Positions 33,001 through 39,000 of a stretch of 64,000 nt of DNA are shown in pieces. The position numbers were made by a program. Origin of the DNA: Nitrosopumilus sp. (lineage in GTDB: Archaea; Thermoproteota; Nitrososphaeria; Nitrososphaerales; Nitrosopumilaceae); the NCBI GenBank assembly GCA_965207445.1, contig CBDBLX010000002.1, positions 448,001 to 512,000 on the forward strand, written 5' to 3'. Position 1 is the first letter of the stretch. The number at the start of each line of letters is the position of its first letter.

Positions 33001-36000
33001 CAAGAGTTATTGAAACAGATGATCCTATATGTACTTTTATCTTTATAAGCCAGTAACCGTTCGTAACCGTTCAACATCTTCCCAAATTCATGCATAGATT
33101 CGCCGCCTAACGACTGGCGCAGACGCAGGGGTTGAACGGTTATGTTAAAATTTACATGACTCACAATTCAGATTATCATACCTGCCACTTTACATCTAGA
33201 TATAATTAATTCTGGATTATCCTCTGTGATATCATTAATTGACCAGTGCAGGCGGGGCCTGTTTATGATCATCAATAATTGGACCTGAAAGCTTATGGAA
33301 TTAGGACAGTTTAATCAACGATACTTTTATACCCTATATTCCTACATTAAACAGGGACGAACTCACATGGCCAAAAAAATAACCAAAGAAGAGAAAGAAA
33401 AAATAATAGATGATCTTTTAAGCAAGCACTATAAGGTATACGATCGGCTGGCAGAACTGTAGATGTACTACCCCGCAATTCAGGACGTCAAACTTGTTAT
33501 TGAAAAGATAAACCGACGTTACAACATGAACGCTGTATAGTATGTTTTTTAAAGAACGTGAAAAAGCCATTGAAAATTTTCAAAAATGCATAGAATTAGG
33601 CGAACAACCTCGGGCAGCAAGCGATCTGATCGCATATGAACTATTTCTACTACACAAGTATGAACAGGCGATAAAACAATGTGACAAAAACATACAACGT
33701 AATGAGAAAAATCCTACGCCCTATTGGATCAAGGGGGCATGTTTGACAGAAAAAGGTAGTTTAAACGAGGCAGAAAAGACTATGAAAGAGGCGCTGAATT
33801 TAGATCCTGACGACCCCGTGAATTCATCAGGTTTGGGAGTCATATTGTCAAGAAAAGGTGATGATGAGGAGGCGATAAAATATCACAAACGCGCCGTGTC
33901 TGTCGAACCGGAGTCAGTCGCATTCAGATTTAATTTAGCAAGAGCATGTTTTAAAATGAACCAAATGGACGAAGCCGAAGAGAACTATAAAGTAATTTTA
34001 GAAATAGATGAAAAGCATGTCGAGGCACTAAATGATTATGGAGAGTTGCTTTCAAACAAGGGAAAATATGGCAAAGCATTGGAATGTCTGAATAAGGTGC
34101 TTGATATAGAACCAATGCACGAGGCAGCACTGACAAATACCGGAATCCTGTATGTCGAAATTGGTGACTATGAAAATGCAATGAAATGCGCCGACAAAGC
34201 CATACGACTATATCCAAAAAAGACGCGTGTGTTGTATGACAAAGCTGTGATTTTAATGAAACAAAACAGGATTGACGACACACTGGACTGGATTGAAAAA
34301 ACGGTCAGGGTGGATAATGATGCAAAGAAAATGTTCTTAGAAGATCCTACGTTTGAAAGGATTAAAAACTCAGAATTGTTCAAAAAATTAACAGAGTAGC
34401 GCTTTTGCAGGATTCAAGGAAATGTTCTTTGTCACTCTATCCTAATAAATATATATATACATATATTTATCTGATTTTGGAAGTTTTAATATTTACGTAA
34501 TTTACCAGATCATTTAGTTACTAATTCAGGTGTGATATTTTCTGATTGTCGTTCTCCGGCTTTATTATGCATGACATCTAATTATTGAATATTTTTGCGC
34601 AGAGATATCTGTTAAAACTCTCTTGTGTGAGTTTTTTGTCGTGCCAGAATTTATGAGCATTGCTATAATCATATTGGCATTGAGAGTTGAGCAGTTACTT
34701 GTACAACACAATATGGAAAAATAAAGCGTTAAATACACTACATGTTGAATAATCTCTAAATGAAATATCTAAAAAACTCAGCATTGATGTTTGCAATGGT
34801 TCTATCAGTTGCTGTTCTTTATACCGGTGGTGTGTCAACAGCACCTGGTAATAATTCTATGATTATACCTGACGTATTTGCTCAGACTTTGAATAATGAG
34901 ATTAAAATAGCATTTTTGAGTGACTTTGGACACGTTGATGCATTCAACTATGCTGTTGATAGTTTTAACCATGAACAGTCTACTATAACTAGTTCAAATT
35001 ATCAAATTACTAGTATGGTTGCAACTGTAAATAGCCGTACAGTTGTCTCTGAGATACAGCGACTAGAGGCAGCTGGGTATACGTACTTTGTAGGACCACT
35101 TACTAGCAGTGCTTCTAATGAGGCAAGACAATATGCCGATACAAAGTCAGATATGGTTTTACTCTCACCTTCATCAACTGCTGCATCTCTGGCTATTCCA
35201 AACGATAGTCTGTTTAGATTGGTACCAAGTGATGACAAACAAGTTCCAATTATCATGAACCGTATTCAAGATGATGGTAAAGAGCATGTTGTACTAGTGT
35301 ATAGAAATGATACGTGGGGAACAGGTATTCGAGATAATATTATACGCGACTATTCTGAAATGGTCTCACTAGATATCTTGTTGCATCCTGATGGTTTAAA
35401 CTCTGCTAGTGTTGCATCCCAAGCTACGGCCAAAGTTCAAGAACTAGTAACAGCATATGGCTCTGAGACTGTTGCAGTTGTATTGGTCTCATTTGAAACT
35501 GACACTATTGCTCTGATTGAGCACATTACATCTAATCAACAATACACTAACACACTTGATGATGTGATATGGTATGGTGCAGACGGCATTTCGCAAAATT
35601 CGGCTGTTGCAAGCAATACTCGAGTTGCATCCTTTCTTGTCTCAGTTGGCTTGACTGCCTCGCAATTTGGGACGGCACCAAATGCAATAAACCAAGTTAT
35701 CTCTGCACAAAACTTTGCTGATGGCGGCTATTCATTTGCCAATGGTGTATTTGATGCTGTATTTTTACTTGCTGATACTATAATCATAAAAGATGAGGCG
35801 TCTACTCGTAATGAGGTATACACCATAAAGTCATTATTACCTGATGTGGCTGCAGGGCTACAAACTCATGACCACCACCCTAATGATAGAACAATTGGCA
35901 TTGGTGCACTAGGTGAATTTACTCTAAATAGTGCAGGTGATCTAGCATCTCCTATCTTGTTTGTACCTTATGAGATGTATCAAAAATCAGACGGTACATA

Positions 36001-39000
36001 TAACTGGCGCGTAGTATCAGATATGGTCAAAGTCTGCCGCTAAATATATCTTGTAAAATTTAGTTTTCTGTATATTTTCTCCGTTCACACATATTTTTCT
36101 ATCGTACTAACAATGGCATCACTAGAAGAATAATTTGCATTGGTGTATTTTTTTTTAATATGACTTGTTGTCGTTGTCGTTGTTTCAAGCATCCTTAACA
36201 TCTTGTAAATTTTCACTCTCTTGATTTGCTGATCTGAGTAGCATTAATTTCTCTTTAATTTTATCCACAATACTTGTATCTTTTTTATAGGCTGGTTTAT
36301 TATCTTTTAACAAATCGTCTATGAATTTTTTATAGTCTTGTTTCCACCCTAACACCTTTTGAAGATCTTCTTCAAACTTCGAATATACATTCCTCTTGGT
36401 CTTTGATATGACATATTCTATCTTACCTGTATTTATCGAACCTGTCACAGATGGATATATAATATATGTCTCAATTACATCTTCTGGTATGTTTTCTGCA
36501 CGTGATAACATCCTTTTGTATGCTGTAACTTGTTTGTTATGGCTAGTAGTTTTGTTTGAATCTTTCTTTGAGCTGGTTTTATAATCTATGATTACATATC
36601 CTGCATCGTGCTTGAAGACTGCATCGATCTTTCCTACAAATACTAGTTCTTCTATATCTCCTCCTCCTACTGTGTCATACTCTGTCATCTCTTTGATTGG
36701 AACATCATATTTCTTCTCTAATGCATGTATTTGCCATCCTGGATATTTTGCTCCTATCTCATCTAGTGCAGATTGGGCATTCTTTATTGCAATTTCGAGT
36801 TTCTCTTTAAAAGATATCCGCCGGTTATCTCCTCCTTGAGCGTCGCCCTCATAATTATCTCCAATATTATCATAATCTTGTATTGTAATATTTTGTGCAT
36901 TGGCATCTCCTTTTAGTATCTTGTGTATTTTATCGTGAAATATGGTGCCAAAATCTGAACTACTCTTTGCAGTATATGTATTGACACCAATTATGTTGTT
37001 TTGCATAAAATCCGGCGGCGATGTGTTGATCTTAGAGTATGATATGCGATCCATCTCCTTAAAGTAATCTGCAATTTTATTCTCTATCCATACACCCTCG
37101 ACACTTTTCTTTAACATTCCTTGCGACTCTTTTACTCTTCCTTGCACAAATAGTGAATAGGCTTCTGCAAGCATGTTGTCTGTACTATTTGTAGTTGACA
37201 TGTACACCTCTGGGTCTTTGTCAGCATCATCATGCACAACATTTACTATGTTTTCATCATCATCATCATCATCATTTATGATAAATTCTTTAATGTTTCT
37301 ACGATCTGTTATTACCACAAGCTCATTTTTTGCCCTTGTTAGTGCAACAAAGTGCTGTCTCATGTATTCTTGTTTTATCTCATCTTGCACATTAATTTCT
37401 AGAGACTGCAATATGGTTCTCTTCACTTTATCATAAATGCTAGTCTTTGTTACATTTTTTGGTATATATATGACCATGCCAAACTCTCGCCCCTTTGCCT
37501 TGTGTATACTACTGACTGTTATCTTTTTGTCCTTGTAATCATCATTACTTTTATTTTTGGACCTGGGTTCTACTTGTGGCTCTTCACAGATTGCAAGATA
37601 ATCAAACATCTCATCAAGCACTGGGGTATTCTTATCCAAATAATCCTCCATATTCTCCTTTATTGACACTGCTGCAACAAACCACTCTTCGCCTTTTGAT
37701 ATGCAGATTGGCAGTATCACACTTTTGAACAGCATATCCAAATCGCTGAACTTTAGATCAACGTCCCATGACTCTAATTCTTTGAGTTTATTATTATTAT
37801 CCTGTTCTGATCTTTTCTGTTGTGCAGTAGAGAACGCATCTGCCTCCCTTAATGTGTATGGTGAGAATATGGTCCATGCTGCACGAATTTTTTTATCCAT
37901 ATCATCATATAATAATCCCGCAAGAAATTTTATAATCTCAATTTTTGCGACAACCGTATCCTTTTTTGCTGATGTTGATGTGTGTTTTATGTCGTGTTTG
38001 TCAAAATATCTTGAAATTTCTGAAACCTGCTCATTTGTTCTTGCTAGTACGCCAATATCTTTTTCTGGACTATCTTTTATTGTTTGCAGTATATTTGAGA
38101 GCCAATTATTTGTTTTCAATATGATTGGCTTGTTTCCTGACCCTCGTGTTGATTTGAGGTTTAGCAAATTACTCTTTTCTGCCTCATCGATCTCGACGCC
38201 TCTCAGGTAGTGTTGTTTTGCATACTCGAGAATCTCACTTGTACTACGCCAATTCTCCAAAAGTTCCATACTTTTACATCTCTCTCTAAATCTTTCCACA
38301 TGTTTGGTAGAGCCTCCTTGGAATCCAAATATTGCTTGTTTCTTGTCACCTACCAAAATTATGTTCTGTGCCACTTTTTTTACAATATTTGACTCCATCT
38401 CATTCATATCTTGCATCTCATCGACTAGTACATACTCGTACTTTTTTTGGCCATATTCATCAAGAAATTTTATTAACATATCTGTATAGTCTATGCTATC
38501 TTTCTTTGTCTTCTCATATTCGTAATATGCATATGTGAGGTATTTTGTAAATGCTTTTAATTCTTCTAGTGTAGACTTTTCTTCTGAACTTGAATATATT
38601 TTTTCTATAACACCTGATACTTTTTTCGCATCTATCATTTCTGGAGTTATGCCAAAACTTTTGATGTATTTTATGGCATTTGCCGTATTTGGTACAACAT
38701 CTGAAATAATATAATTTTTTAAGTGATGTGTGGCGCCATTTTTAGTGAGACTACTAAATATTGAGAATCGTAGTAAATTATCATCATTTATCACTGATGA
38801 GATCAAACCATTGTCTACTAGATACTCGTGTGCGAAACTATGAAATGTGTGTATGTGGATATTTTTTACCTTTGAGTAATGTTTAGAGTCTACATGCTCA
38901 AAAATGGAATCATACATCTCATCTCTTGCCTTTTTTGTAAATGTAATGCACAGGATTTCATCTGGGTTTATGCAGTTTTCTAAGAGTTGTATCACTTTTA

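Follow-up and report, generated by a model that had tools for sequence, protein, structure and literature searches.

What does a terminal Cys-Arg (CR) dipeptide do at the end of a predicted exported binding protein encoded in the 64,000-nucleotide stretch of Nitrosopumilus sp. DNA analyzed here (the window)? An initial annotation had proposed that extracellular proteins of unrelated families in this genome share this ending. The matter bears on how Thaumarchaeota hold surface binding proteins and adhesins, which is poorly understood. In our analysis, the CR ending looks like an undescribed tag for covalent tethering of surface proteins.

The window protein (Table 1) terminates in ...DMVKVCR, followed by a TAA stop in the ORF list, and contains a single Cys, at penultimate position 426. 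A match to Pfam PF01094 (ANF_receptor; E = 1.5e-13, 51 bits, cut-off 25.4) and a two-lobe alpha/beta AlphaFold2 model (mean pLDDT 81.9) fit a predicted type I periplasmic binding protein fold (ANF_receptor/Peripla_BP_6). Residues 44–421 were modeled as alternating strands and helices with pLDDT mostly 83–98, while residues 1–41 and 422–427 fall below 50. The N-terminal region contains a hydrophobic core at about residues 8–22, with a hydropathy peak of 2.21 at residue 8, and a spacer up to ...VFAQ. Homologues retain the hydrophobic core followed by an A-x-A-Q-like site, and cleavage of the signal is predicted from these sequences.

Table 1. Features of the binding-protein gene, in window coordinates.
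Feature	Position	Strand	Basis
Periplasmic-binding-protein homologue gene (type I, ANF_receptor family), 427 aa, export predicted	34760..36043 (incl. stop)	+	ORF list, Pfam, AlphaFold2
Predicted N-terminal export signal region, aa 1-41	34760..34882	+	Hydropathy, pLDDT, homologues
Two-lobe binding-protein domain, folded in the model, aa 44-421, without Cys	34889..36022	+	AlphaFold2 model
C-terminal tail MVKVCR, predicted disordered, aa 422-427, bearing the tag [K]-[V]-C-R	36023..36040	+	pLDDT, homologue alignment
TGC codon for Cys426, proposed reactive thiol	36035..36037	+	Cys count, codon list
CGC codon for terminal Arg427, then TAA stop	36038..36043	+	Codon list

The ending is far from isolated. 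Across the 2.6-Mb genome (96.4% complete), our own crude gene caller returned 2258 ORFs, 16 of which end in CR against 1.26 expected from composition (12.7-fold, Poisson p 6e-13) or 2.99 expected from position-specific frequencies (p 1.2e-7). The excess reported in the initial annotation was thus borne out, although its count of 18 became 16 in our calls, a difference most likely due to gene calling. As had also been claimed, CR is the most over-represented C-terminal dipeptide among the 2258 calls. Internal CR dipeptides match expectation (366/661,239) and show no enrichment. Arg is the last residue in 16 of the 42 proteins with Cys at position −2. The reported association with an N-terminal hydrophobic segment was reproduced: ten of 235 proteins with such a segment end in CR versus six of 1501 others (Fisher p 6.6e-6), so that an export segment is present in 10/16 CR proteins, and some of the others have mis-called starts. 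The 16 genes encode the Cys by eight TGC and eight TGT codons, the Arg by five different codons and the end by all three stop codons, and this variety at all three positions argues for selection at the protein level.

In agreement with the claim of unrelated extracellular families, at least 13 of the 16 CR proteins belong to exported groups, namely binding proteins, vanadium haloperoxidases, Ig-type adhesins and tandem Cache proteins. Solute-binding proteins account for five of them, spread over three Pfam families; surface proteins of the Ig/fn3/He_PIG type for four; and vanadium haloperoxidases and dCache_2 proteins (the latter about 1560 aa each) for two apiece. Of the remaining three, one is a ComEC-like metallo-beta-lactamase fragment and two have no family. 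None of the 16 matches an NCBIfam C-terminal sorting domain.

What the carriers share is an unpaired Cys on a flexible, disordered tail outside the folded domains. Apart from the tag Cys, the mature window protein is free of Cys, as are the mature proteins of loci L003, L004, L006, L010, L013 and L014; in L001, L002, L005 and L008 the tag Cys is the odd one. It is likewise the only Cys of a 3896-aa PKD adhesin in a related genome, G396. Tagged haloperoxidases mostly have seven or nine Cys and their untagged sisters mostly six, and tagged proteins are otherwise poor in Cys (0.64 versus 1.21 per 100 aa). The 30 residues preceding the tag are two-fold enriched in Pro, and a Pro/Thr-rich linker often lies ahead of the tag. 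The tag Cys is preceded by [L/R/K]-[V/I], and I or V occupies position −3 in 54 of the 78 unique tails (background 14%). Lys was never observed in place of the terminal Arg among the homologue endings examined. No hydrophobic or transmembrane segment follows the motif, nor is there a hydrophobic extension downstream in any frame of the 16 genes. In domain fusions (P0086, L002 and P0019), the tag keeps to the extreme C terminus.

Homologues of the window protein preserve the ending. At E ≤ 2.2e-76, 28 of 29 proteins (query included) end in CR and one in CRH, confirming what had been said of this family. The further claim that the last two residues are fixed while those before them vary was upheld by 18 aligned homologues, in which Cys and Arg are invariant and the last conserved Trp is followed by a spacer of variable sequence and of 7 to 13 residues. 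More broadly, the CR ending is conserved across homologues at 40–65% identity while neighboring residues vary. In five related genomes, it occurs at 8/9 loci of the window family and in 18/29 complete ORFs of three other families. The tag Cys is invariant in 24 tagged haloperoxidases, and in the haloperoxidase tree 23 tagged sequences form one clade (support 98) without a single loss of the tag. An excess was also found in G396, whose first 800 kb gave 611 calls, ten of them with terminal CR (0.42 expected), at a GC content of 60.5% versus 39.6% here.

The spread of the tag is narrow. Within the genus Nitrosopumilus, 6 of 151 species genomes carry an orthologue of the window protein; a free-living congener shows no CR excess (1/904 calls) and a genome from another genus no CR endings (0/257 calls). 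The ending is therefore not a trait of Nitrosopumilaceae at large, as first suggested; its carriers form a narrow, probably sponge-associated clade of these ammonia-oxidizing archaea, each genome of which has roughly a dozen exported, mutually unrelated proteins with a Val/Ile-Cys-Arg terminus.

Taken as sequence evidence, these patterns support a family-independent, position-bound C-terminal tag under strong protein-level selection. We tentatively favor its being a thiol tethering tag that would act through an intermolecular disulfide. A modular [L/R/K]-[V/I]-Cys-Arg-COOH tag would be carried by Sec-exported surface proteins of one Nitrosopumilus clade, and after export and folding each protein would present a single unpaired Cys on a flexible tail beyond its folded domains. 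Its thiol could then form a disulfide with a second tagged tail or with an envelope or matrix protein, possibly assisted by the cell's existing DsbA-like oxidoreductases, and this bond would hold the protein at the cell surface or cross-link it there. Recognition would depend on the invariant Arg and on the Val/Ile ahead of the Cys, and the terminal Arg may also increase thiol reactivity. Hypohalous acid made by a haloperoxidase would soon oxidize any free thiol on the enzyme, and for that reason the Cys is probably in a bond; we infer a disulfide, with surface retention as the outcome. Against the disulfide, no partner was found. The S-layer-like protein L230 (match to PDB 8c8k, E 1.5e-76), the sole envelope candidate tested, has four paired Cys that do not differ between genomes inside and outside the clade. 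The genome has four Thioredoxin_4 (DsbA-like) matches, but these genes are not clade-specific and so leave the clade restriction of the tag unexplained. The invariant Arg is also not obviously needed for a plain disulfide, and the fact that Lys never replaces it hints at a dedicated enzyme or receptor. A bolder reading, possible although rather doubtful, is that symbiotic Nitrosopumilus have an undiscovered post-translational pathway that recognizes [V/I]-Cys-Arg-COOH as a C-terminal sorting signal lacking a transmembrane segment, and in which the Cys would be joined enzymatically to a lipid, glycan or envelope protein, with possible release of Arg, by an enzyme outside the known sortase, archaeosortase, CPBP, Lgt and prenyltransferase families.

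Chance, composition or a gene-calling artefact is an extremely unlikely source of the pattern. Non-coding open frames do end in CR at a rate of 0.33% (32/9794), the gene caller is crude and, among the 16, two or three are small, score low or look cytoplasmic; given that rate, these (L007, L011 and perhaps L012) may be chance. For the core 13 proteins, however, this explanation is contradicted by the size of the excess and its replication at very different GC in G396, by conservation amid varying neighbors and by the varied codons, and two control genomes show no excess. The main rival to the disulfide is C-terminal lipidation, by which the Cys would take an archaeal lipid through a thioether, with or without Arg removal, as a membrane anchor; we regard it as unlikely. 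Where an outer membrane is lacking, binding proteins normally have to be anchored. For TACK archaea, a 2025 survey (PMC12462473) predicts few lipobox lipoproteins. The tails before the tag are linker-like, as in anchored proteins; an invariant Arg together with V/I at −3 points to recognition by an enzyme; and lipids are also attached to a Cys in the lipobox, in CaaX and, according to the proposal in Haft 2023 (bioRxiv 10.1101/2023.06.07.544157), in MYXO-CTERM-type signals. Yet nothing hydrophobic would keep the Cys at the membrane, the C terminus lies far from the N-terminal signal in adhesins of 2000–3900 aa, and the [L/R/K]-[V/I] residues before the Cys are unlike a lipobox. The genome has no match to Lgt (PF01790, a search that left out archaeal AliA/AliB), prenyltransferase (PF00432), ICMT (PF04140) or the M14 carboxypeptidase family. 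Its sole Rce1-like CPBP protease (PF02517) is a housekeeping gene that 141 of the genus's 151 genomes carry as a single copy, and thus as widespread as the initial annotation had cautioned, and no shared enzyme was found among 106 genes flanking the CR loci. No result supports the 'C-terminal lipobox', lipidated after Arg removal, that had been put forward, and the missing matches to lipidating and transpeptidating families count in favor of the disulfide.

Quite unlikely, too, is a non-covalent sorting, retention or turnover signal read by a receptor, PDZ-type domain or protease, with the Cys as a contact residue and roles such as placement under the S-layer or controlled release. The conserved terminal three residues and end position would suit it, and the genome has other C-terminal signals (five PEFG-CTERM proteins matching TIGR04296 and 35 C-terminal transmembrane anchors), but it leaves the single unpaired Cys and the Cys depletion unexplained, and no clade-specific reader protein was identified. 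Among the genes around CR loci, peroxiredoxin genes adjoin L001 and L003, and superoxide dismutase genes lie near L005 and L013. A redox, sulfur or metal swinging arm, whose tail Cys would carry or sense a persulfide, metal or oxidant, could draw on these neighbors and on the flexible tail with a penultimate Cys, a feature for which the C-terminal arm of DsrC is known. We hold it to be very unlikely: the carriers (adhesins, binding proteins and a haloperoxidase) are functionally unrelated, one thiol is a poor metal site, and the oxidative-stress neighbors are few and could be coincidence.

If real, the thiol tag would be a new way to build an archaeal cell surface, a minimal tag testable for surface display and an easy criterion for picking the symbionts' surface proteome out of their sequences. 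That proteome consists of the very adhesins, ligand-binding arrays and haloperoxidases believed to mediate their life within a host. Enzymatic joining, if true, would make it the shortest prokaryotic surface-anchoring signal known. A three-residue motif is invisible to profile-based catalogues of sorting signals, which would explain why the tag has been missed so far.

Among known systems, the Cys-containing tripartite signals MYXO-CTERM, CGP-CTERM, JDVT-CTERM and Synerg-CTERM, described as processed by Rce1-related CPBP 'myxosortases' (Haft 2023; mBio 2025 PMC11980579), resemble the tag, as outlined in those reports, in a short signature with an invariant Cys, use by many unrelated surface proteins of one lineage and Arg at the very end. 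In those accounts, however, a transmembrane helix and an Arg-rich cluster follow the Cys motif, whereas CR proteins end one residue later with a single Arg, and the dedicated CPBP protease contrasts with a genus-wide gene here (141/151, versus 6/151 for orthologues of the tagged window protein); membership was rejected. The N-terminal lipobox (bacterial Lgt; archaeal AliA/AliB, as described in PMC12462473) shares a single conserved Cys on exported binding proteins, but that Cys follows a signal peptide and small residues, whereas the tag Cys is C-terminal and follows V/I; the lipobox [LVI][ASTVI][GAS]C was excluded, the mature parts of seven CR proteins having no other Cys and the search for Lgt, which did not extend to AliA/AliB, finding no match. 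Sortase (LPXTG) or GPI-type transamidation was likewise set aside: CR proteins lack a hydrophobic tail, and sortase PF04203 and C13 transamidase/legumain PF01650 have no match in the genome. PEFG-CTERM and PGF-CTERM archaeosortase signals are also C-terminal on archaeal surface proteins, but CR proteins lack the PEFG motif and transmembrane helix, the TIGR04296 matches are other proteins, and the archaeosortase family has no match in the genome. The eukaryotic CaaX box and Rab CC/CXC endings, which direct prenylation, Rce1 cleavage and ICMT methylation, are similarly motifs of a few residues with Cys at the extreme C terminus, independent of protein family; the CaaX Cys lies at −4 in cytosolic substrates, whereas the tag Cys lies at −2 in proteins with export signals, and prenylation was rejected on this position and on the unmatched enzymes. 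The secretory tailpiece of IgM/IgA and the C-terminal Cys of the trefoil factors TFF1/TFF3 are used for intermolecular disulfides. Like the CR tag, they combine an unpaired, near-penultimate Cys with a flexible tail, secretion and a conserved residue after it; they are single animal families, whereas the CR tag spans unrelated archaeal ones.

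A single ORF occupies the interval of the window gene, and its 427-aa product, which carries a hydrophobic export segment at the N-terminus, has the C-terminus ...YNWRVVSDMVKVCR, followed by TAA. Its only Cys is the penultimate residue, Cys426. In an AlphaFold2 model built with 18 homologues, residues 44–421 are confident and the last six residues, MVKVCR, have a pLDDT of <50, so Cys426 is predicted to lie on a short disordered tail outside the fold. No RNA dataset was listed as holding the gene.

Coordinates of the window gene and of other features (positions in the window unless a contig or locus is named)
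Feature	Position	Strand	Remarks
Window gene	34760..36043	+	type-I periplasmic-binding-protein homologue; Pfam ANF_receptor, E 1.5e-13, 51 bits versus a cut-off of 25.4
Transposase gene or fragment	31586-32263	-	beside the window gene
UvrD-type helicase fused to PD-(D/E)XK nuclease	36185-39103	-	972 aa; convergent with the window gene
Radical SAM gene	39795-40706	-	near the window gene
Triple ANF_receptor protein	57609-62447	+	exported, 1612 aa; three tandem binding domains; no Cys, no CR ending
Peroxiredoxin/dismutase genes near tagged genes	L125:1269-1739, L127:1171-1632, L128:3696-4514, L136:6092-6709		
Anchor-sharing exported proteins	G000:C2:8485-10875, 151766-153625, 2007116-2008315, 2084335-2085408		
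Anchor-sharing exported proteins	C2:412-1500 with 2486674-2487741		
Identical gene pair	C1:17848-18807 = C2:479-1438		
Identical gene pair	C1:81883-84798 = C2:84059-86974		
L225	G000:C2:2162445-2167130	-	exported, 1561 aa; middle part matches subtilisin-like S8 proteases

The gene set of the 2.6-Mb genome (G000) was assembled with a crude caller from the longest ORFs and a codon-usage score with overlaps resolved, giving 2258 genes. Sixteen of these end in Cys-Arg (the tag) versus 1.26 expected by composition (Poisson p 6e-13); position-specific frequencies, which are inflated by the signal itself, predict 2.99 (p 1.2e-7). The genome-wide excess reported in the initial annotation is reproduced, while its figure of 18 proteins became 16 with our own gene call, and the count therefore depends on the caller. 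CR is the most over-represented terminal dipeptide (12.7-fold, followed by RR at 4.4-fold and KK at 3.8-fold), internal CR dipeptides occur at the expected level (366/661,239) and Arg is last in 16 of the 42 proteins with Cys at −2. Non-coding open frames of at least 60 codons end in CR in 0.33% of cases (32/9794), as Cys and Arg are common in random frames. Chance may account for the members with low scores (L007, L011 and perhaps L012); for the core set of tagged proteins, it is excluded. The signal does not lie in the DNA sequence itself: the Cys codons of the 16 genes are TGC (8) and TGT (8), and five Arg codons and all three stop codons are in use. No hydrophobic stretch is encoded downstream of the tagged genes in any frame, which rules out a hidden read-through anchor.

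Pfam assignments agree with the earlier claim that the carriers come from unrelated extracellular families. These include five solute-binding proteins of three families (one ANF_receptor, three SBP_bac_3, two of them tandem, and one SBP_bac_5 + ANF_receptor fusion); the two vanadium haloperoxidases of the genome, one carrying a fused ANF_receptor domain; four surface proteins of up to 3825 aa with Big_9, He_PIG, fn3, HYR, FG-GAP, NHL and Bact_surface_Ig-like repeats; and two ~1560-aa proteins with a dCache_2 domain at the end. The remaining three are a ComEC-like metallo-beta-lactamase fragment and two proteins without a family. None of the 16 matched an NCBIfam C-terminal sorting domain. The link to an N-terminal hydrophobic segment, also part of the initial annotation, was recovered: the ending is present in 10 of 235 proteins with such a segment and no internal transmembrane segment versus 6 of 1501 others (Fisher p 6.6e-6), and starts are visibly mis-called or broken in several of those six.

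Transposase genes or fragments (IS66, IS240, DDE_3 and DDE_Tnp_1) stand beside many tagged genes, placing them in the flexible part of the genome. AhpC/TSA peroxiredoxin genes adjoin tagged L001 and L003, whereas tagged L005 and L013 have Fe/Mn superoxide dismutase genes nearby, one of the dismutases bearing a long N-terminal extension.

Within the window family (E <= 2.2e-76, 29 members including the query, 40–100% identical), 28 proteins end in CR and one in CRH; P0036, a homologue 27% identical to the window protein, also ends in CR and ten other proteins listed do not. Between the last conserved Trp and the tag lies a stretch of 7 to 13 residues that also varies in sequence, with the C and R columns of the alignment invariant. 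Among the 78 distinct tails gathered from every source, 54 have I or V at position −3 (background 14%) and 72 have one of I, V, L, M, A, T or F there; L, R or K predominates at position −4. Two further proposals, that C-R is kept while the preceding residues vary and that position −3 favours residues such as I and V, are thereby upheld.

The haloperoxidase family has both tagged and untagged members. The CR ending occurs in 24 of the 120 homologues listed, all of them ranked 47th or better. A FastTree phylogeny of 118 of the 120 (last 12 residues cut, two rows <450 aa excluded) placed 23 tagged haloperoxidases in one clade (SH-like support 98) nested among untagged sequences, with no loss of the tag. 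The 24th, P0086, falls elsewhere in the tree; Big_9, Cadherin and HYR domains follow the enzyme, and the tag is at the new end. The fusions L002 (haloperoxidase + ANF_receptor) and P0019 (ANF_receptor + SBP_bac_3) also bear it at their extreme ends. Judged from these sequences, the tag belongs to the end of the protein and not to any one domain. Tagged haloperoxidases mostly contain 7 or 9 Cys and untagged sisters, which end in ...PH[FWY]TGR or ...SWTGY, mostly 6. In P0050–P0160, the untagged homologues of L001 from archaea and bacteria, the tail is ...D-P-x-L-x-x-P-H-[FWY]-T-G-R or ...S-W-T-G-Y, and the tagged clade has ...L-V-C-R instead.

The tag Cys is typically unpaired. It is the sole Cys of the ORF in the window protein and in tagged L003, L004 and L006; the other Cys are confined to the N-terminal leader in L010, L013 and L014; and in L001, L002, L005 and L008 the remaining Cys are paired, leaving the tag Cys over. 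Tagged proteins are otherwise low in Cys (0.64 per 100 aa versus 1.21 genome-wide). The region before the tag is often linker-like and of low complexity, with a long run of PTQ repeats in L015, Asn/Asp runs in L012 and Ser/Pro/Gln in L010, and Pro is twofold enriched over the 30 preceding residues.

Among 151 species genomes of Nitrosopumilus, only five besides G000 hold an orthologue of the window protein. Eight of the nine orthologue loci from these genomes end in CR, the ninth being broken by a stop. Of the 29 complete ORFs in the same genomes that match the haloperoxidase, SBP_bac_3 or Cache proteins, 18 end in CR; L101 (CRG) and L084 (FTGR) are near misses, and the other nine include four of ~745 aa, matched via the SBP_bac_3 region, as well as several that are short or of weak similarity. 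In the first 800 kb of the tag-rich relative G396 (GC 60.5% versus 39.6% in G000), 10 of 611 gene calls end in CR with 0.42 expected (p 3e-11), three of the ten having been known beforehand to fall within the sample. This unbiased sample replicates the excess. A Pfam scan of seven of the ten identified, among others, ANF-type binding proteins, a fusion of SBP_bac_5 with ANF, and a 3896-aa PKD/fn3 adhesin that has no Cys other than the penultimate residue. G396 and G000 are placed in one genus with GC contents 21 points apart, yet their orthologues are 50–98% identical in protein.

The first 800 kb of the free-living congener G201 (33.5% GC, no orthologue) gave CR in 1 of 904 calls (0.30 expected), in a 73-aa protein that shows no export features. 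G052 belongs to another genus, and its first 400 kb gave 0 of 257 (GC 70.8%, at which the gene caller is rough). Of 301 genomes sampled from the family, 64 have more distant ANF_receptor homologues; none of 31 frames of at least 300 aa at 18 loci, off-frame ORFs included and giant multi-domain ORFs cut by the locus ends, closes in CR, and one genuine homologue has a transmembrane anchor as its C-terminus. In a run labelled sponge metagenome, two contigs of 166 bases match inner parts of the window gene at 99% or more, with the gene end not covered, and some haloperoxidase homologues bear sponge-symbiont names; these pieces and names may hint at a sponge habitat.

Across the flanks of the 16 tagged genes (106 genes in all), Pfam showed many transposases and no enzyme in common. 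The genome had no match to Exosortase_EpsH (exosortase/archaeosortase, PF09721), Sortase, Peptidase_C13 (legumain/GPI8), Peptidase_M14 carboxypeptidase, Prenyltrans (CaaX prenyltransferase), ICMT or LGT; at 96.4% completeness, absence of these families is likely rather than proven. A CPBP/Rce1-like protease was rejected as a clade-specific cognate enzyme, being single-copy in 141 of the 151 genomes of the genus. PEFG-CTERM is found on 5 proteins of G000 and C-terminal transmembrane anchors on 35, none of them tagged. Comparison of the proteome with the 800-kb samples of G396 and G201 by tblastn gave 288 clade-specific candidates, 94 with a hydrophobic segment, most of them plainly housekeeping genes whose G201 copy lies outside the sample. 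When six large proteins, five of them S-layer candidates, were compared with PDB sequences, only L230, which is thus S-layer-like, matched the solved Nitrosopumilus cell-surface protein 8c8k (E 1.5e-76). L230, the one candidate tested as a disulfide partner, was rejected, as it has the same four Cys in three clade and two non-clade genomes and none extra in the clade.

Several exported proteins share the C-terminal anchor ...G-x-G-[IV]-S-[IV]-I-x-L-N-x-G-x-Y-[IV]-x-A-P..., followed by basic residues, which may be a family-specific anchor domain; the gene of one lies directly downstream of L230. The triple ANF_receptor protein of the window has the top codon score per residue among large proteins and a G396 orthologue that is 78% identical. 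This protein and the tandem SBP_bac_3 and Cache proteins suggest that ligand-binding domains are arrayed at the surface like 'beads on a string'. Identical gene pairs indicate that part of contig C1 duplicates C2, through assembly redundancy or a real repeat.

One extra thiol on the flexible tail of Cys-poor exported proteins fits a covalent attachment point, as does persistence of the tag through family divergence, domain fusion and a 20-point GC shift. Our tentative preference is for an intermolecular disulfide over an enzymatic thioether or other adduct; the tag Cys would pair with a second tagged tail, or with an envelope or host-matrix protein. A disulfide requires neither positioning at the membrane nor any enzyme beyond the four DsbA-like proteins found in G000, and a free thiol would be short-lived on an enzyme that produces hypohalous acid. 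We regard C-terminal lipidation at the tag Cys as unlikely; the absence of every lipidation family searched for favours the disulfide.

The disulfide reading has its own weaknesses. No partner was found, L230 lacking an extra Cys in the clade, and Lys never replaces the terminal Arg among the homologue endings examined, which hints at a specific reader. A signal for sorting or turnover that acts non-covalently is, in our estimate, improbable, and a redox or carrier arm very improbable. There is an appreciable, though less than even, chance that a new processing pathway lies behind the tag.

The tag lacks defining features of every family tested. MYXO-CTERM, CGP-CTERM, JDVT-CTERM and Synerg-CTERM are described as tripartite signals with an invariant Cys, a transmembrane helix and an Arg cluster, served by cognate Rce1-related proteases (Haft 2023). 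The tagged proteins, in contrast, stop one residue after the Cys, and the only Rce1-like gene here is the single-copy one of 141/151 genomes of the genus. No description of this C-terminal Cys-Arg motif was found in the literature, subscription journals being largely outside the search. The tag is a family-independent C-terminal signature on surface proteins, and such signatures are already known as a kind; in concept it is nearest to the CaaX box and to Cys-containing C-terminal sorting signals. In its likely chemistry the tag is nearest to the tailpiece of IgM and IgA, which has a penultimate Cys.
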